64,000 bases of DNA from IMG/VR virus record IMGVR_UViG_2508501124_000001, positions 5,277 to 69,276 of that record. One strand, written 5' to 3'. Source of the stretch: a virus (Duplodnaviria > Caudoviricetes). Positions 46,249 to 60,594 of the stretch are shown one piece after another; the stretch's first letter is position 1; every line of letters begins with the position of its first letter. The notes under the pieces are model-generated. The model made no database searches. It saw nothing but the letters and a program-made list of their open reading frames with translations, and was not told the origin of the DNA. Position numbers and translations under genes: made by a program.

Positions 46249-46407
46249 CTTTCCTATGGTTTGTGCCTCTTGCGAGGCGTTGACGGTCCATACTGGAGAA
46301 AATGGCGACAGTTCAAGCCGCCATTTCAGGCTCTACAACTTATGAAAAAACGCCCCCATGCTTCGGTGAAACTGTTATCTCCCGGACTCCTTTCTGGGAG
46401 CGGGCTT

Positions 46408-46974
46408 TTATTGAACCGCCATGCTTTGTTCGCTATATCTACCCGGCCTCCCGAGCACTTCGATGATGCGAGCCCAGTTAAAATCGGGCCTCAAGTCTTG
46501 ACAGCGGACTCCGGTGAGCTTGGCGATCGTTACGCACCGCTCGACCGGAACGCCGCGCTTAAGCCAATTCGCGATGGTTTGAGCCTTTGTGGTGCCGCCG
46601 ATGCTGTTTGCGAGATTCGTTATGCCACCCATCAGATCAATGGCACGCTGAAGTGCTGGCGCCCCGCTGTCCAAGTCATCGCCACAATCCAACGCCTCCG
46701 CGGATTCGTGCGCAATGCGGCAGGCAACATCGAAGGCAATGCCGTAGAACCACTCATTGCCGCGAACTTCGGCAGCGATGCGACGGCACTCACGCAGTGC
46801 GCGCGCTTCGGCAACTTGCATCACGCCGGCACATTCGAAAACCGCGCTATCAACCAACTCGATGCGATGGCAGGCAAGTTGCTCGGCATGCTGAGCAATG
46901 CGACGAACGGAATTTTTGGAGCGACCGAGCTTGACGCATCCATTCGAGAACAGGCAGACGTAGAGACTGTTCAT
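46408..46974 (-). CDS. T5orf172/GIY-YIG-like domain fused to a Cro/YdaS-like HTH
   Basis: LYV...VKLGRS..RRI...E...NEWF; GGITNLA..IG..QTIANW..GVP...LRPD. Confidence 0.7.
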   Translation of the reverse strand: MNSLYVCLFSNGCVKLGRSKNSVRRIAQHAEQLACHRIELVDSAVFECAGVMQVAEARALRECRRIAAEVRGNEWFYGIAFDVACRIAHESAEALDCGDDLDSGAPALQRAIDLMGGITNLANSIGGTTKAQTIANWLKRGVPVERCVTIAKLTGVRCQDLRPDFNWARIIEVLGRPGRYSEQSMAVQ

Positions 46975-53576: not shown

Positions 53577-54364
53577 ACACAGCAACGATGGCAGACATCA
53601 CCGACATTGAGATTGCCACACCGGCCACGGCGAAGCCGCCAGCGGTGCAGCAGACGCGAGCCGTCACTGCATCCGCTACGCCCGCCGATCTTCTACGCAT
53701 CGCCGTTGAGAGCGGAGCGGACCTTGACCGACTTGAGCGTTTGATGGCGCTCCAAGAGAAGTGGGAGGCGGGTGAGGCCCGCAAGGCATACGTGGTGGCG
53801 ATGACTGCATTTAAGGCCGAGCCACTGGAAATTTTCAAGAAGAAGACGGTCGAGTTCAGTGGCACGAAGTATAGCCACGCCGAGCTTTCGGACGTGACGG
53901 AGGTGGTCTGCCCGGCGATGGCAAAGCATCAGCTTTCGCACCGCTGGGACGTAACACAGAACGCTGATCGGATCACCGTCGATTGCGTCATCACTCACGT
54001 CCTGGGGCACAGCGAGAAGGTGACGATGGAGGCCATGCCGGATAGCAGCGGCAAGAAGAACGCCATTCAACAGGTGGCGTCGACCATCAGTTACCTGCAA
54101 CGCTACACGCTCCTGGCTGCTACCGGCGTGGCAACCAAGGGCATGGACGACGACGCGCAAAGCTCCATCGCCAAGGTCGACACGGACGAGGTGTGGATGA
54201 AGTGGGAGGGCGCGTTGAATTCCGCCGAGACCGCTGAAGACGTCCGGAAGGTCCGAGCTCTGGCGGGGACGGCATTCGAAACCATTGGCGACGTCGAAAG
54301 CTGGAACCAGTTCAAGGTGATGGCCGACAAGAAGAAGGCCGAACTGGGAAGGAGCGCGCAATGA
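53573..54364 (+). CDS. erf: ERF-family ssDNA annealing protein
   Basis: KYSHAEL.D..V, Q..ST.SY..RYTL motifs. Confidence 0.85.
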   Translation: MNTATMADITDIEIATPATAKPPAVQQTRAVTASATPADLLRIAVESGADLDRLERLMALQEKWEAGEARKAYVVAMTAFKAEPLEIFKKKTVEFSGTKYSHAELSDVTEVVCPAMAKHQLSHRWDVTQNADRITVDCVITHVLGHSEKVTMEAMPDSSGKKNAIQQVASTISYLQRYTLLAATGVATKGMDDDAQSSIAKVDTDEVWMKWEGALNSAETAEDVRKVRALAGTAFETIGDVESWNQFKVMADKKKAELGRSAQ

Positions 54365-55008
54365 AACAGAATTTCATCGTCTCGGAGCACCCACAGGGAA
54401 CCGCAGAATGGCTGGCAGATCGTTCCGGTCGTGCCACCGGCTCTAAAGCGGATTGTGTAACCGCCAAGGTCAAATCTGGCGAAGCAGCAACGCGTGCCGA
54501 TTACCGTGTCCAACTCGCACTTGAGCGCCTTCTGTGCAAGCCGTGCGGCGACGAATTTTCGACCGCGGACACGGAGCGCGGCCAGGAGCGTGAGCCGTTT
54601 GCCCGCATGCGGTACGAGATTCAAACCGGCATCACAGTTCAGGAAAGCCCGTTCGTCTATCGCGAAGACATGATGGCCGGTTGCAGCGTCGACGGTTTTC
54701 TCGAAGATGCCGGAAAGTTCGGAATCTGGGAGGCGAAGTGCCCAAAGAGCAAAACGCACTTCAAGTACCTCACTGAGGCGCGTGTACCGCCGACCTACGT
54801 AAAACAGGTGCTGCACAACATGCTCATTACCGGCGCGGAGTTCGTCGACTTCGTTTCGTTCGATCCCGAAATGCCTGAAAAGCTTCAGTTGTTCGTGTTC
54901 CGCTGGGAACGTGACGAAGAAATGATTCGGGAGTACGAGGCCGAGTTGCGACAGTTCCTTTTCGAAGTCGACGCCACCCACAAACAGATTGCGGCGATGG
55001 CCGCCTGA
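54361..55008 (+). CDS. YqaJ/lambda-exonuclease family
   Basis: QGT.EW...R...TGS, GQEREP.AR..YE, SVDG, EAKCP. Confidence 0.9.
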   Translation: MKQNFIVSEHPQGTAEWLADRSGRATGSKADCVTAKVKSGEAATRADYRVQLALERLLCKPCGDEFSTADTERGQEREPFARMRYEIQTGITVQESPFVYREDMMAGCSVDGFLEDAGKFGIWEAKCPKSKTHFKYLTEARVPPTYVKQVLHNMLITGAEFVDFVSFDPEMPEKLQLFVFRWERDEEMIREYEAELRQFLFEVDATHKQIAAMAA

Positions 55009-55032
55009 TTCACCTTACACAAGAGCGAAACC

Positions 55033-55461
55033 ATGATTCAGATTTTCGGATTGGCCCGAGTAGGCCGCGACGTTGAAGTGCGCAACACCACGGGCGGCGA
55101 TGCGGTCGCAAGCGTCTCGCTGGCGTTTTCATACGGTCGCAAGGGCGACGATGGCAAGAAGCCGACGCAGTGGGTAGATGCAGCGTTGTGGGGCAAGCGC
55201 GCTGAGGCGCTGGCGCCGTATCTCACGAAGGGAACGCTTGTCACTGTGACGCTTGAAGACGCGCACATCGAGACTTTCCAGAAGCAGGGGGGCGGAGAGG
55301 GCGTGAAGCTCGCCGCTCGCATTACCGCAATCGACCTCGCGGGCGGCGGAGAAAAGAAGCCCGCACTAGCGCCCGCACCGAAGCCTCAGCAACGGCAAGC
55401 ACCGCAACGCGCTCCGGCCGGTGGCGGATTCGATGACATGGGCGAGGACGTGCCGTTCTAG
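55033..55461 (+). CDS. ssb: Single-stranded DNA-binding protein
   Basis: OB fold; C-terminal DDMGEDVPF. Confidence 0.92.
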   Translation: MIQIFGLARVGRDVEVRNTTGGDAVASVSLAFSYGRKGDDGKKPTQWVDAALWGKRAEALAPYLTKGTLVTVTLEDAHIETFQKQGGGEGVKLAARITAIDLAGGGEKKPALAPAPKPQQRQAPQRAPAGGGFDDMGEDVPF

Positions 55462-55619
55462 CCCTCACGCGCCCACCAGCAGTGGATGAAGCCTACTGGC
55501 GCGAATCTCTGCGTAAGTCTGGTGGACGCGCCCATACCCCGAACCGTAGGCAGCACTGCTTGCGGCGTGCTTGGGGAGGTCACCACGACTCCCGTTTTTT
55601 CCGCGACAGATGAGAAGAC

Positions 55620-56774
55620 ATGGAAACCGTGAAGACATTGAAGTTGCGCATCAAGGACAAGCACGCGAAAGCGATGCTTGCGATGGCACGCGATGTCAAC
55701 ATGGTCTGGAATTTCGCTAACGAGACCCAGTACCGCAGTCTGAATCGTTACTGCGATCGTCCGAAGACATGGCTGAGCGCGTACGACATGCAGAAGCTCA
55801 CGGCCGGATTCGTTAAGTGCGAAGGGGTTGTAGTCGGCGCTCAGACAGTCCAAGAAACATGCGAAGAGTTCGTTACACGTTTGAAGCATGCCAAGAAACA
55901 AAAGTTGAGTTGGCGCGTGAGCAACCGCAAGTCGCCTAAGTACTCGCTTGGCTGGGTTCCATTTAAGAAGGGCGCGCTCAAGTACAAGGATGGACAGATC
56001 CGATTCAACGGTCTGAACATCGGCTTGTGGGACTCATACGGCCTTTCGAAATATGAGTTGCGCGCCGGCAGTTTCAACGAGGATTCGCGCGGGCGATGGT
56101 ATGTCAACGTGGCAGTCAAGGTCGACGTCGAAGAGAAGCGCATTCCGGACGGTTCCGCATCTATCGGCATAGACCTCGGCCTCAAGACTATGGCGACATA
56201 CAGCGACGGCGGATCGTTCAACCCGACTCGCTGGTATCGCGCGTCAGAGCAGAAGCTAGGCATTGCTCAGCGGGCGAACAAGAAAAAGCGGGTCAAGGCT
56301 ATTCACGCCAAGATCGCAAATCAGCGCAAGGACGCCATTCACCGGGAAACGTCAGCGCTAGTCAAGAAGCATGCAGCAATCTTCGTGGGCAACGTGAACG
56401 CTCAAGCGCTGGCGAAAACGAGCATGGCTAAGTCTGTGCACGACGCCGCGTGGAGCATGTTCCGAAATCAGCTGAAATACAAAGCCATCAGGCATCAGGT
56501 GATCTTCGAGGAAGTCAACGAAGCGTTTTCAACCCAGACCTGTTCGAGTTGTGGTGCTCTGCCCGATTCGCGGCCGAAAGGTATCGCAGGCCTTGGAATA
56601 AGAGATTGGACGTGCATCGATTGCGGAGCGGTCCACGACCGAGACGTAAATGCCGCACGGAACATTCTCGCGCGCGGACATGCGCGTCTCGCAGGAGGAA
56701 TCCTTGGCAGTCGTGCCAGGGAGGATGTCAAACGACCCTCTGATGCGATCAATGAAACAGGAGAACAGAAATGA
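55620..56774 (+). CDS. tnpB: TnpB RNA-guided endonuclease (copy 1), no tnpA
   Basis: GIDLG, zinc finger CSSC/CIDC, HDRDVNAARNI; RuvC-II FVGNV with alternative VNEAFST. Confidence 0.92.
   Translation: METVKTLKLRIKDKHAKAMLAMARDVNMVWNFANETQYRSLNRYCDRPKTWLSAYDMQKLTAGFVKCEGVVVGAQTVQETCEEFVTRLKHAKKQKLSWRVSNRKSPKYSLGWVPFKKGALKYKDGQIRFNGLNIGLWDSYGLSKYELRAGSFNEDSRGRWYVNVAVKVDVEEKRIPDGSASIGIDLGLKTMATYSDGGSFNPTRWYRASEQKLGIAQRANKKKRVKAIHAKIANQRKDAIHRETSALVKKHAAIFVGNVNAQALAKTSMAKSVHDAAWSMFRNQLKYKAIRHQVIFEEVNEAFSTQTCSSCGALPDSRPKGIAGLGIRDWTCIDCGAVHDRDVNAARNILARGHARLAGGILGSRAREDVKRPSDAINETGEQK
56600..56750 (+). ncRNA. Predicted omega/reRNA of TnpB copy 1; IS605-type right end TCAA (56728-56731), guide about 56732-56750
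   Basis: CCTTGGC/GCCAGGG hairpin followed by GAGGATGTCAA; 5' boundary approximate. Confidence 0.6.
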
Positions 56775-57466
56775 GCAAAGACTGGAACGGGATCAATGAA
56801 GGGACCGCATCTACCGCATCCACGCTCCCCGAAGGTGGGGATGAGCGGGCGGCGTTTGAGAAATGGTGCAGGGACAACGGCGTACATGGCACGACTGATT
56901 ACGCTACATACGCAAAGTGCGAGAAAGCCTGGATCGATTCGCAACTCTACGCCCGCGCCGCATCTACTGCCACTGTTCTCGCCGAGCAATCCGCCGCTCC
57001 GCAAGCGAAGCTGAGTGAGGTTCAGATAGAAGCCGTCACCTACGATGAATACGCAAAACGCCAAGATGGCGAATCGGACCTTGATTGCATTCTGAAGGTG
57101 GTCAAGCGTTGCATGGGATTCTCTAATGAGCCGCGCAATGTTGAAGGTCTGACGCGCGCAGAGTTTGAGCATCAACTGCGCGTGGGACTTCAGCACGACA
57201 ACGTTCGCCGGAAAGAGCGCGGCATTCCTGAAATGACTGTGGAGGCGATGGAGGCGGAAATCACAGAGCGCGTCGAGCTCAACTACCCGACGCCGAAGCG
57301 TTGCCCCGGCTGCGCCGCATTCGACAACCCGGAAACAGCGGAGGTGGATTTCGTGCAGGGCTGCGAAGGCTGCAAAGCGCGTATGCAAAAGATCGCGGGC
57401 TTTGGACCGTTGGCTGCCACTCCCCTTCCGCGCGCCAGCGGGCAAGCAGACGAGGCGGTGACGTAG
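56771..57466 (+). CDS. Hypothetical phage protein, 231 aa
   Basis: DERAAFEKW motif; two CxxC. Confidence 0.65.
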   Translation: MSKDWNGINEGTASTASTLPEGGDERAAFEKWCRDNGVHGTTDYATYAKCEKAWIDSQLYARAASTATVLAEQSAAPQAKLSEVQIEAVTYDEYAKRQDGESDLDCILKVVKRCMGFSNEPRNVEGLTRAEFEHQLRVGLQHDNVRRKERGIPEMTVEAMEAEITERVELNYPTPKRCPGCAAFDNPETAEVDFVQGCEGCKARMQKIAGFGPLAATPLPRASGQADEAVT

Positions 57467-57467
57467 A

Positions 57468-57635
57468 TCAATCAAGCTTCGGCGGCTTTGCGCGGTCAAT
57501 TAGCTTGCGCAACCACGGTATGCCATAGGCGTCGATCTTCGCCCACTGAGCAGGAGTAAGCCGGATAGAGCGCTGTTCTAGGCGTTCGCCGGGTGACTTG
57601 GGCGGTCGGCCCATCTTCGGTTTAGTAGGTTCCAT
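57468..57635 (-). CDS. Small ribbon-helix-helix/AT-hook regulator divergent from TnpB copy 2
   Basis: KMGRPPK..RSIRLTPAQWAKI..G..WLRKLI. Confidence 0.7.
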   Translation of the reverse strand: MEPTKPKMGRPPKSPGERLEQRSIRLTPAQWAKIDAYGIPWLRKLIDRAKPPKLD

Positions 57636-57675
57636 GGCCGGATTGTACACCCACTTATCGGGTCACAAAAAGCGC

Positions 57676-57704
57676 TTGCAATCACCTACATATTGAATCA
57701 CAAT
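57676..57704 (+). promoter_or_regulatory. Promoter for TnpB copy 2
   Basis: TTGCAA-17-CACAAT. Confidence 0.55.
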
Positions 57705-57734
57705 AAGTACCAACAAAAGCATCGGTGCTTCGAC

Positions 57735-58814
57735 TTGAAAACGTTACGACTCAAATTGCGCGATGGTCAGGAATGGCTCGACGAAGCGGCCAGGGAAGTC
57801 AACATGGTCTGGAACTTCGCCAATGAAACCACGGCCAAGGCCGCGCGCCCGTTCTATGGGAAGCCTAGGTATCTGTCTGGTTTCGATGTCGAGAAGTTGC
57901 TGACCGGCGTCCATTCTGAACTGAAGTATTTGCAGGCGAATACGGTTATCCGCATTGCTCATGAACACGCTGATCGACGTTTGCAGTTCCGGAGATCGAA
58001 GCTGCGGTGGCGCAGTTCTGGCGGCTCCAAGCGGTCCTTGGGTTGGATTCCGTTCAGGCATCCTCAGGTCAAGTTCGTGAAGGGCGCAATACGCTTCTGC
58101 GGGAAGCGATTTCGCGTGTTCGACAGCTATGGCCTGGACAAATACGAACTGAGGTCCGGGGCCTTTTCGCAAAACGCTCTCGGGGAATGGTTCGTCAACA
58201 TAGCAGTGAAAACAGCGACTAAGGCTCCCGATATGCCCCGGCGCGCAGTTGGCGTCGATCTGGGTCTGAAAGCGTCAGCTACAACGAGTGATGGCCAGAT
58301 ATTGGCCGCTGGTGACTTCTACCGCGGTATCGAGCGGAAGATCGCCGAGGCACAGCGGCGAGGGCATAAGCGCCACGCAAAACGATTGCATCAACGTGCT
58401 GCGAACCGCCGTAATGACGCGCTGCACAAGTTCAGTACCGCCATGGTGAACAACTATGGGGCGATTTACGTTGGCGACGTGAGCAGCCTGAAACTCGCAA
58501 AAACCAAGATGGCGAAAGCTGTCTTGGACAGCGGGTGGGGGATGCTCAAGACCATGCTGCACTACAAGGGCCATCAGGCCGGCAGTCTGGTTGAAGTCGT
58601 AAACGAGAGGTTCACAACTGTGACTTGCTCTAACTGTGGCCAGCACACCGGCCCCAGGGGTCTAAGGCAGTTGCATGTAAGGGGATGGTTCTGTTCGGCC
58701 TGTGAAACCGATCATGACCGAGACATTAATGCGGCCAGAAACATCCTCGCCCGTGGGCTAACGGGTCCGTCAGCGGGAACCAACTTTAAGGAGCAAAAGC
58801 ATCATGTGCACTGA
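57735..58814 (+). CDS. tnpB: TnpB RNA-guided endonuclease (copy 2), no tnpA; start uncertain (TTG 57735 or 57693)
   Basis: GVDLG, CSNC/CSAC, HDRDINAARNI; RuvC-II YVGDV with alternative VNERFTT. Confidence 0.9.
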   Translation: MKTLRLKLRDGQEWLDEAAREVNMVWNFANETTAKAARPFYGKPRYLSGFDVEKLLTGVHSELKYLQANTVIRIAHEHADRRLQFRRSKLRWRSSGGSKRSLGWIPFRHPQVKFVKGAIRFCGKRFRVFDSYGLDKYELRSGAFSQNALGEWFVNIAVKTATKAPDMPRRAVGVDLGLKASATTSDGQILAAGDFYRGIERKIAEAQRRGHKRHAKRLHQRAANRRNDALHKFSTAMVNNYGAIYVGDVSSLKLAKTKMAKAVLDSGWGMLKTMLHYKGHQAGSLVEVVNERFTTVTCSNCGQHTGPRGLRQLHVRGWFCSACETDHDRDINAARNILARGLTGPSAGTNFKEQKHHVH

Positions 58815-59025
58815 AAAGAAACCGGCGTCACCCGCCGGGGAAGCCAAATCCCCCGACGCGCGCGAGCCCCTGGGCGCGCAGATTAACGGTAACGACATCG
58901 AGAAACTGTTCCTCACATGGTCCGAGTGGACGACTGAACTCGGGGAAGCGATCTCGCGCAAGAACATCGACGGATTCGTGAGCGACTTGCGCGCCCTTCT
59001 TCGTGAGGCGGGGAGCGGGAAATGA
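58804..59025 (+). CDS. Hypothetical protein, 73 aa
   Basis: AAGGAG RBS. Confidence 0.55.
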   Translation: MCTEKKPASPAGEAKSPDAREPLGAQINGNDIEKLFLTWSEWTTELGEAISRKNIDGFVSDLRALLREAGSGK

Positions 59026-59423
59026 GCAACGAACTCACACCGAATCGACCATCGCCGGAAGGTCGCATGCTCGGAGGGCAATTGGCGCGTCTCACCGACA
59101 AGGCCGAGATTGAAGCTCGCGCCAAGTTTCCGAATCATAAGGCCCGCTGCAAGAGTTGCGCATTCATAGCAGGCACTGTGCCGAACGGATGCTTGCCGAC
59201 CGTCATGGACGCTCTGAAATGCGTCGTCGATGGCACACCTTTCCATTGCCATCAGGAATTCGACGACAAGGGTATCCCGACCGACCTGTGCGCGGGATGG
59301 TCCATTGCTTCAATGGCTGCGGATTCCAAGTTGCGTGAGCGCATGCAGCCAATTGTTGACGATTGGGAGTTGAGTTGCATCTACGACGAATCGACCGTTC
59401 TTTCCAAGGACCAGACGACATGA
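59022..59423 (+). CDS. Cys-rich hypothetical protein
   Basis: RCKSCAF..FHCH..LCAGW. Confidence 0.65.
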   Translation: MSNELTPNRPSPEGRMLGGQLARLTDKAEIEARAKFPNHKARCKSCAFIAGTVPNGCLPTVMDALKCVVDGTPFHCHQEFDDKGIPTDLCAGWSIASMAADSKLRERMQPIVDDWELSCIYDESTVLSKDQTT

Positions 59424-59986
59424 GTGACAACCAGAGGTTAATCGACATGCTGCAGTACTGGGAAAAGGAACCTTGCCTGCCGGGTCCTGCGGCTACGTGT
59501 CGCGAAGCGCGAGTCGTGATCGAGCAGCAAGCCGCCAAGATAGCCGAATTCGAGCGCATCCTCGACGGCCTACCGCAAGACGCGATCGACGGAGGCTGGA
59601 CGGCGCGAGGCATCAGCGCATATGCGAAGAAGCTCGAAGAACGGATCGCCGCCCTCGAATCCGCTGCAAAGTCGGAGCCGGTGGCAGAGTTTGAATGGCC
59701 GAAGCTACCGGGATTTCCGGCTCCTTCGATGTACTCGCCGCAAAACGGAGCAGGTCTTTTCACTGATCATCAAATGCAGGGCTACGCGAACGCCTACGGC
59801 GAAGCAGTCCGCGCCGCTCTTGAGAAGGTAGGCGGGCGGGATGCGGAGCGGGTGACGGTGACGCCAGCGATGGTGAAGGCCGCTATGCCATGGCTCACGG
59901 GGTTGCAACACATGCGCAAGACGGACAAAGAATCGCACGTCGAAGAGGCGATTAAAGCCGCCCTGTCTCAACAGGAGTTGAAATAA
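59420..59986 (+). CDS. Hypothetical protein, 188 aa
   Basis: Coupled ORF; LPQDAIDGGWTARG. Confidence 0.6.
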   Translation: MSDNQRLIDMLQYWEKEPCLPGPAATCREARVVIEQQAAKIAEFERILDGLPQDAIDGGWTARGISAYAKKLEERIAALESAAKSEPVAEFEWPKLPGFPAPSMYSPQNGAGLFTDHQMQGYANAYGEAVRAALEKVGGRDAERVTVTPAMVKAAMPWLTGLQHMRKTDKESHVEEAIKAALSQQELK

Positions 59987-60204
59987 TGGTCGTCCCACAT
60001 CGAATCATTCGCCCGCGCATCGTTATTCAAGCTGGCCACTATCAGGTCAAAAACTGGAAATTGTCTAAGCCATCTTCAGGTGTGAGGCTAACTCTGGACG
60101 AAGGCTGGTCCTTTAGAAAGGCACACATATGGTGTGTCGAGCGCAACGATGCTGCCAAGGCTACGCGTTCCCTGTCACAGAAAGCGGGAGAGCAGGATGA
60201 CTGA
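59986..60204 (+). CDS. Hypothetical protein, 72 aa
   Basis: AGGAG RBS. Confidence 0.5.
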   Translation: MVVPHRIIRPRIVIQAGHYQVKNWKLSKPSSGVRLTLDEGWSFRKAHIWCVERNDAAKATRSLSQKAGEQDD

Positions 60205-60289
60205 CCTCTACCTATTCGCCCTATCCCTAGGAATATCCTGGCTATGGGTGTACGTGGCGCAAAGGGATTTCTTTGAGGGGGCGGCATGA
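60197..60289 (+). CDS. 30-aa membrane peptide
   Basis: Coupled; hydrophobic. Confidence 0.4.
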   Translation: MTDLYLFALSLGISWLWVYVAQRDFFEGAA

Positions 60290-60594
60290 AACCGTATGCG
60301 ATCACGATGAGCGTCACGGCCGTAGTTATGGCTGAAAACGAACAACACGCGCGGATCGTCGCTGAACGTGACAAGCGCGAGATATTCGGCGACGTCTATG
60401 GCGACCAGATCAAGTATTCGCCGGCCACGGAAATGACGTGCGAGGCTGACCTTGAAAAAGTTGGCTGGGATGACCTTTGCATTCCCTACGGCGGCGACGG
60501 CAACACACGCCTGAGTGACATTCTCGCCGCGGTCGAATCTGAGCCAGAGCGGGACACGCGGACGATAGACATGTTTCAGGAGCAGGCAGGATGA
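60286..60594 (+). CDS. Hypothetical protein, 102 aa
   Basis: Coupled; RDTRTIDMF C-terminus. Confidence 0.6.
   Translation: MKPYAITMSVTAVVMAENEQHARIVAERDKREIFGDVYGDQIKYSPATEMTCEADLEKVGWDDLCIPYGGDGNTRLSDILAAVESEPERDTRTIDMFQEQAG

Follow-up and report, generated by a model that had tools for sequence, protein, structure and literature searches.

A maintained alternative-Glu TnpB-omegaRNA module, probably expressed from a separable repressor-promoter cassette, in a prophage

Results

Organization of the locus

The locus described here lies at 57468-58814, with a right-end region reaching 58847, in a 64,000-nt stretch of prophage DNA (IMG/VR record IMGVR_UViG_2508501124_000001), the whole of which is called the window. 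It comprises a gene for a small ribbon-helix-helix (RHH)-like protein and the second of two tnpB copies in the region (tnpB2), whose product is 42% identical to that of copy 1 and is probably the core of a functionally maintained TnpB-omegaRNA module (Table 1). A first-pass annotation, made from the letters alone, had described the small minus-strand open reading frame (ORF) and tnpB2 as divergent, separated by a promoter region of ~100 bp, with the stop of the small gene 1 nt from that of the upstream gene. These observations were borne out: the upstream gene stops with TAG at 57464-57466 and the small gene at 57468-57470, and the region between the divergent genes measures 99 bp once their starts are refined. 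In an alignment of 20 homologues, all of which start with M-E/D, the RHH-like gene begins at ATG 57635, and the GTG at 57650 is unlikely to serve as a start. The start of tnpB2 was placed at TTG 57735 and not at 57693, because its relatives begin M-K-T-L-R/Q-L-K and DNA similarity to the related locus L008 starts at 57736 (related loci are cited by such L numbers).

Table 1 Coordinates of the features of the locus in the window
Feature	Position	Strand	Description
RHH-like gene	57468-57635	-	55 aa, GRPP AT-hook-like N-terminus
RHH-promoter cassette	57464-57715	.	RHH gene plus ~75 bp conserved control region
Divergent control region	57636-57734	.	99 bp between RHH ATG and tnpB2 TTG
tnpB copy 2 (tnpB2)	57735-58814	+	359 aa from TTG 57735
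OmegaRNA-like scaffold	58660-58847	+	overlaps tnpB2 3' end
Hairpin 1	58750-58765	+	CCCGT..ACGGG, covariation
Stem 2	58766-58777	+	covariation
Variable insert with ribosome-binding site and ATG	between stem 2 and terminal hairpin	+	from subclade alignment
Terminal hairpin CCGGCG-TCACC-CGCCGG	58822-58838	+	keeps pairing in L041 and L008
Terminus GCCAA	58843-58847	+	conserved ahead of unrelated flanks
Predicted guide ATCCCCCGACGCGCGCGAGC	58848-58867	+	first 20 nt of flank past right end
73-aa ORF	58804-59025	+	starts within element, crosses right end into flank
Empty target site	60173-60192	+	20/20 nt match to guide of L008 sister TnpB

tnpB2 encodes a TnpB with relocated RuvC-II glutamate

Searched with curated cut-offs, the tnpB2 product matched PF07282, the Cas12f1-like TNB (zinc-ribbon) domain (73.9 bits, cut-off 26.3), and PF01385, OrfB_IS605 (43.6 bits, cut-off 30.5), and a profile of its subclade matched solved TnpB structures (E = 6e-31). 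The Gly/alternative-Glu arrangement reported in the first-pass annotation was reproduced by the family alignment and by comparison with TnpB structures: Gly 58473-58475 occupies the position that belongs to the canonical RuvC-II Glu in ISDra2-type TnpB and in solved TnpB structures (IYVGDV in the window, IAVEDL in the structures), and an alternative Glu at 58605-58607 stands six residues ahead of the first CxxC, in the pattern ExxxxxxCxxC. This class of alternative-Glu TnpB was defined by Yoon et al. (PMC10711439). The three RuvC residues (Asp 58257-58259, Glu 58605-58607 and Asp 58722-58724), together with the four cysteines of a CxxC..CxxC zinc finger, are invariant across 22 relatives. Compared with its homologues in L041 and L008, tnpB2 has a ratio of nonsynonymous to synonymous substitution rates (dN/dS) of 0.06-0.15, indicating purifying selection. 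With these domains, a RuvC catalytic triad whose Glu is relocated, and the predicted structured 3' omegaRNA region described below, tnpB2 is a TnpB proper.

A covarying omegaRNA-like scaffold ends at 58847

Hairpin 1 and stem 2 fall within the last codons of tnpB2. In an in-register alignment of 28 relatives, 99.2% of the cells were paired, with 74 double-sided changes; the covariation score of 0.79 compared with 0.21 in shuffles, of which 0/500 reached 0.79, and with 0.05-0.18 in slid controls. An earlier unguided RNAalifold run on a mixed alignment had missed hairpin 1 owing to register shifts, and the test was redone on the in-register subset. Third-codon positions were 95-100% identical among the window, L041 and L008 over 58663-58782, versus 5-35% in mid-gene; such nearly frozen synonymous sites point to a second constraint on the same sequence.

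Retention of hairpin 1 had been recognised in the first-pass annotation, which took the terminal hairpin and its TCAA-type end to be lost. That loss proved mistaken: the hairpin at 58822-58838, followed by GGGGAAGCCAA, lies just past the end coordinate then used. This terminus ends at 58847 and aligns with the hairpin-GGAGGATGTCAA of copy 1 (56720-56731), and its hairpin still pairs in both L041 and L008, where a G-C pair is replaced by A-T and the loop differs in length. In canonical relatives, copy 1 included, GGAATCC-hairpin-GGAGGATGTCAA is followed by unrelated DNA. In the copy 2 subclade, the conserved core GCGGGAACC is followed by a variable insert of 6-60 nt and then by GG(A/T)AG(C/T)CAA in 11/11 members, and the flanks past this G(C/T)CAA terminus are unrelated among the 11. 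Similarity to relatives with other flanks (L008) likewise stops at 58847; with the right end there, the guide is predicted to begin at 58848. The previously suggested guide at 58770-58795 was rejected, as it falls inside the conserved scaffold, ~60-80 nt too far upstream. Similarly, the view that the locus lacks IS605 ends holds for the left end, of which none was seen, and fails for the right, whose terminus is present up to 58847.

An E-value search of Rfam over 54000-60500 found no omegaRNA or RAGATH family, and a DNA pattern scan for the conserved core returned mostly chance matches (L240-L244). On the minus strand, the terminal hairpin is followed by TTTCTTTT and resembles an intrinsic terminator for antisense transcription; it is terminator-like on that strand only, and counts of such structures in the region were not above shuffled controls. 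In copy 1, the terminus GGAGGATGTCAA (56720-56731) lies ~43 nt ahead of the annotated stop, within 56720-56774, so that the copy 1 ORF reads through its own guide (from 56732); it also overlaps the ATG of the next gene.

The right end of tnpB2 carries translation signals of its own. A ribosome-binding site (RBS), AAGGAG at 58788-58793, and the ATG at 58804 both lie inside the right end (58788-58806) and open the 73-aa ORF, whose first 15 residues are element-encoded and whose remainder is the C-terminal module of the interrupted phage gene. The same read-across arrangement of RBS and ATG was found in L041, L008, L044, L070, L245, L246 and L248, and ATGA start/stop overlaps occur at the right end in L044, L245 and L246. 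A 123-nt stretch inside this ORF (58865-58987) is absent from L041, where the homologue has 33 aa, a further indel between close relatives.

The insert and the altered terminus raise the possibility that tnpB2 is a stranded remnant, in which the protein may survive, the omegaRNA is defective, RNA-guided activity is gone and the flank matches record a historical insertion site. The shortened terminus is, however, conserved in 11 members with different flanks, its hairpin pairs through compensatory changes, and L070 combines an insert with a perfect canonical terminus. A remnant would explain the departure from the canonical GGAGGATGTCAA, the 40 nt with RBS and ATG inserted in the scaffold, the non-significant folding z-score (see Discussion) and the want of transposase and left end; it sits poorly with the low dN/dS, with catalytic residues invariant across the subclade and with synonymous sites nearly frozen over the scaffold. 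We consider this explanation improbable.

tnpB2 and its relatives are phage genes without transposase or left end

Relatives of tnpB2 at 59-91% identity are nearly all on phage or prophage contigs, the closest being those of L041 (91% aa identity) and L008 (86%). Members of the subclade are found in early operons of phages, next to genes for ERF, YqaJ, methylase and integrase. They are transcribed in the same direction as the adjoining genes, with which they often have overlapping start and stop codons. The subclade thus appears to be an ordinary, translationally coupled gene of early or recombination operons in temperate phages. No transposase was found near members in this identity range. 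Among more distant relatives (45-50% identity), a divergent Y1 TnpA accompanies 8/166 loci, which assigns the family to IS200/IS605. An IS607 or RAGATH-18 type of element was ruled out, since there was no Rfam match and the relatives carry Y1 TnpA.

PF01797 (Y1 TnpA) had no match in the window, and the only Y1 match of the host genome is weak (28.5 bits) and on another contig. No conserved left end was detected in the subclade: similarity starts at the start codon or at most 18-26 nt before it, with no shared hairpin. Upstream of the start codon, L041 and L008 alone share ~25 nt, of which the window has a possible 14-nt trace. Hence tnpB2 has neither the Y1 TnpA nor the left end of a complete IS200/IS605 transposon. 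The notion of a transposase-independent module is therefore upheld: both mobility parts are missing, yet the low dN/dS, the invariant residues and the covarying hairpins show that the module is maintained. The 213 genomes of the same genus contain no close relative of tnpB2, the best being 46% identical. A third, partial TnpB-like frame occurs in the same genome (L003; contig C62 of G000, 46359-46973), 37% identical over residues 170-363; it has two in-frame TGA codons and is probably a pseudogene.

The RHH-promoter unit is separable from tnpB2

The RHH-like protein had no Pfam or PHROG family match, and a PDB profile search with it found no match. Among named ESM clusters, those nearest to it are RHH families, at only 0.84-0.86; the AT_hook motif was matched in 2/19 family members. 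The gene is conserved, with a dN/dS of 0.03-0.21.

Its control region contains two 25-nt direct repeats with the core TCACAA (repeat family D1; 57648-57672 and 57683-57707), 76% identical and 35 nt apart. Between and over them lie rightward promoter-like hexamers, TTGCAA (57676-57681) and, after 17 nt, CACAAT (57699-57704), and a leftward TACAAT (complement of 57642-57647) stands 6 nt ahead of the RHH ATG, a spacing that points to an mRNA without leader. The two TCACAA repeats, TTGCA-N17-CACAAT directed away from the RHH gene, and TACAAT 6-8 nt before the ATG are common to about 20 RHH loci. The divergent layout, with two 25-nt repeats over promoter-like hexamers, resembles that of Arc-tnpB modules, with a putative RHH protein and putative binding sites here. 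Very likely, the RHH-like regulator controls the promoter reading into tnpB2.

In known Arc-tnpB modules the regulator is part of the element. The Arc (RHH) proteins that IS605 elements carry are encoded divergent from tnpB, and bind and repress the tnpB promoter (Moon, Zedaveinyte, Wiegand, Sternberg, September 2026, bioRxiv 10.64898/2026.09.24.754181). By analogy, the RHH gene and tnpB2 might form one dedicated two-gene mobile unit with its left boundary just past the RHH stop, at ~57464. Besides the Arc-like layout and the repeats over promoter elements, this proposal can draw on the block 57464-58847 being flanked by parts of one interrupted gene family, and on recurrence of the arrangement. 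Searching 199 TnpB-seeded loci with an RHH profile found the cassette in 2, L047 (69% TnpB identity; collinear at 68% DNA identity over 57476-58781) and L125 (48%), each time divergent and directly upstream of TnpB. A third case, L064 (31% identity, canonical-Glu type), is the only locus with a downstream TnpB among the 22 found by RHH-seeded searches of phage contigs and genomes. In all three, tnpB starts 5-30 nt past a -10-like box with no left end between.

The same searches speak more strongly for a separable cassette. All 22 RHH loci share the gene and ~75 bp of control region, whereas the first gene downstream differs, is mostly unrelated from locus to locus and is unrelated to TnpB in 21/22. 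Recurrent RHH-tnpB linkage as a dedicated cassette, which the first-pass annotation had implied, is thus not supported by the counts from either direction. L041 and L008, the closest relatives, lack the cassette, although L041 has the same right junction. Neither the counts nor these two loci place the regulator inside the element as a part that travels with tnpB. Similarity to RHH loci without TnpB spans 57476 to ~57710, and tnpB homology begins at 57736 or at most ~18 nt earlier. Finally, the RHH-tnpB pair of L064 is single-copy in its genome. We therefore regard the two-gene unit as unlikely.

Comparison with L041 locates the joint. The window and L041 are 97.8% identical over 57419-57463, the identity is lost from 57464 and returns at 57736. 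In place of the 272-nt block 57464-57735 of the window, L041 has 171 nt, consisting of 55 further codons of the upstream ORF and a spacer. The sharp breakpoint, together with the occurrence of the cassette without TnpB elsewhere, indicates that the cassette is independent of tnpB2. It is a recent replacement that cut short the upstream gene and put a predicted promoter before tnpB2, and the RHH-promoter unit as a whole is a generic, widespread phage cassette that stands in front of TnpB only now and then. In L064 (Paraburkholderia sp. J67, NZ_CAJMZK010000002.1) and L125, TnpBs of other clades start 5-9 nt past the -10-like box, and these loci may represent convergent capture of the same promoter cassette.

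Two predicted guides of the subclade match empty sites in related phages

Past 58847, the flank codes for the C-terminal module of a phage gene whose homologue in L258 is uninterrupted (…ATPP-SPDARE…LLREAGSGK) and contains the first 18 nt of the window guide, with CCCCC ahead of them; the same 18-nt match, likewise after CCCCC, occurs in L259. The 18-mer was not found in the 212 other genomes of the genus. Conversely, the guide of L008 matches the window itself at 60173-60192 in 20/20 positions, preceded by CCC (chance expectation 0.00). This site covers the RBS and the junction before the next gene, and the prophage would thus be a target of the nuclease of the L008 phage. The site is likewise empty in six other loci (L041, L231, L232, L234, L235 and L258), always preceded by CCC. 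Because the DNA upstream of these sites is unrelated between loci, the targets appear to be short, conserved sequences at the junctions of modules that can be exchanged. For two other subclade guides, no empty sites were found in viral contigs, and a genus search for homologues of the downstream 133-aa gene gave one distant match and no usable empty site.

In carriers, the G(C/T)CAA end of the element stands where empty alleles have CCC before the target. As for a free-standing homing endonuclease, the predicted target is found whole in relatives without the gene and interrupted in the carrier. This pattern fits a predicted homing-type nuclease with self-immunity.

Near-identical short junctions (the linkers TPLPRASGQADEAVT, ATPPSPDARE and ALSQKAGEQ) were observed at the ends of otherwise unrelated phage genes, in the window at 57419-57463 and 60160-60195 and in L231-L235, L258 and L259. 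They resemble recombination joints, the early region being highly mosaic, and joints of this kind are what both TnpB guides point at.

The guide also bears on a regulatory role. The first-pass annotation had proposed domestication for inter-phage competition or for gene regulation. The empty target sites in related phages lend support to the first option, competition or homing. Under the second, tnpB2 would be a TldR-like RNA-guided regulator, or a nuclease directed at host or phage genes, with the RHH protein as co-regulator. A copy fixed in an operon, devoid of mobility functions and adjoining a transcription factor would suit such a role, and phage-borne TldRs are known. Unlike in TldRs, however, the RuvC residues Asp, alternative Glu and Asp are intact and invariant, and the only exact match of the guide in the 7.7-Mb host genome is its own flank; no second good match was found there, and near matches were no commoner than in a reversed control. 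With catalytic residues intact and no promoter matched elsewhere in the genome, a TldR-type repressor was rejected, and we give the regulatory scenario as a whole very little credence.

Discussion

Taken together, our results favour the view that tnpB2 is an immobilised, functionally maintained TnpB-omegaRNA module of the IS200/IS605 family and of the alternative-Glu type, which is probably expressed from a borrowed repressor-promoter cassette and probably acts on empty alleles in related phages. Activity and expression are here predicted from sequence, and we infer the RNA, the cleavage and the binding. The earlier observation is thus partly confirmed, and the interpretation given to it partly supported.

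The following mechanism is proposed. The rightward promoter of the cassette would transcribe tnpB2 and the genes after it, and the RHH protein would bind the two TCACAA repeats, repressing both this promoter and its own. TnpB2 would carve the omegaRNA (~58660-58847 plus the guide from 58848) out of that mRNA. The resulting complex would cut DNA in which a transposon-adjacent motif (TAM; candidate CCC) is followed by the guide sequence, that is CCC + ATCCCCCGACGCGCGCGA, as in the uninterrupted allele of related phages, while the resident copy would be immune owing to GCCAA in place of the TAM. Cleavage followed by recombination could then lead to homing, co-conversion or exclusion of competitors, in the manner of a free-standing homing endonuclease.

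Several points weigh against this view. The folding energy of 58678-58847 is no better than that of shuffles (z = +0.26); the subclade terminus is shortened, with GGAAGCCAA instead of the GGAGGATGTCAA of canonical relatives; and the 6-60 nt insert parts the terminus from the conserved core, so that the omegaRNA might not work. The candidate TAM rests on two independent sites. A strict sigma-70 scan gave no site at threshold, and the promoters are accordingly assigned from conservation only. The RHH fold is putative: the AlphaFold monomer has three helices (predicted local distance difference test score, 73), and Foldseek and VIA-align returned nothing meaningful. RHH and tnpB stand side by side in four cases, which involve three TnpB clades and never have a left end separating promoter and gene; this hints at more than coincidence. 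Moreover, the view does not account for the presence of copies without a left end at different sites.

A broader proposal can be put forward more tentatively: the alternative-Glu TnpB subclade may consist of nucleases that serve temperate phages, free-standing and guided by RNA, for homing or exclusion. Its members would have lost TnpA and left end, become wired into early operons beside the phage recombinases, and would carry a right-end RBS and ATG that restart translation of the interrupted gene; their flank-derived guides would be aimed at the short conserved junctions of exchanged modules, with a C-rich TAM (CCC), sister copies would target each other's genomes, and portable repressor cassettes would set expression. 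Although possible, this generalization is less secure than our reading of tnpB2 itself.

Cas12 descends from TnpB, which in nature is known to help its own transposon to be retained. If our reading is true, RNA-guided nucleases would also take part in conflict between phages, acting as stand-alone genes for homing or exclusion, which might represent a stage between the selfish nuclease of a transposon and a system of defence or offence. The locus lends itself to direct tests, as it provides a defined guide and target, a candidate TAM, empty alleles from nature and a naturally occurring regulator; its TnpB is also compact and of the alternative-Glu type, and the TAM may be C-rich.

Comparison with known systems

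The closest counterpart in regulation is Arc-tnpB IS605, which likewise has a small regulator divergent from tnpB and repeated sites over the -35 and -10 elements of divergent promoters, with tnpB repression and autoregulation to be expected. Unlike there, the regulator cassette of the window is separable, stands mostly before unrelated phage genes and lies outside the unit that tnpB2 shares with its closest relatives. Its protein, with a putative RHH fold and no Pfam match, is extended at the N-terminus by an AT-hook-like stretch of 20 aa and is compared with Arc proteins by layout and not by homology. Arc-like proteins, too, mostly adjoin unrelated genes (bioRxiv 10.64898/2026.09.24.754181). 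The regulatory logic, an RHH protein repressing tnpB, is already known from this 2026 preprint; in the phage version described here, the regulator is not element-borne but borrowed.

As nucleases, the TnpBs of ISDra2 and its relatives, which act in homing and so retain their transposon (Karvelis 2021 and Meers 2023, as summarised in PMC10055086 and PMC13565253), belong to the same family as tnpB2, with a 3' omegaRNA ending at the right end, a guide taken from the flank and an empty site beside a TAM as target. From these, tnpB2 differs in having no TnpA, left end or multi-copy spread and in being translationally coupled to its neighbours on either side within a phage operon; its RuvC-II Glu is relocated (Ealt, PMC10711439), its candidate TAM is C-rich, and its scaffold terminus is shortened and bears an insert with RBS and ATG. 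Like TldR, it is TnpB-related and fixed, with no transposase, in the genome of a phage; it is distinguished by intact catalytic residues and by a guide without a promoter match elsewhere in the genome.

The genomic pattern also resembles intronless homing by the T4 Seg and Mob nucleases (PMC10448857): a single nuclease gene stands between phage genes, with presence or absence at a site that is intact in relatives. Like free-standing homing endonucleases (PMC10448857), tnpB2 lies at a mosaic boundary beside phage recombination genes. Unlike that of Seg and Mob, its specificity would be that of an RNA guide taken over from the flank and would not reside in the protein. What appears to be new is the targets, namely the intact guide sequence in the uninterrupted homologous gene of other phages.

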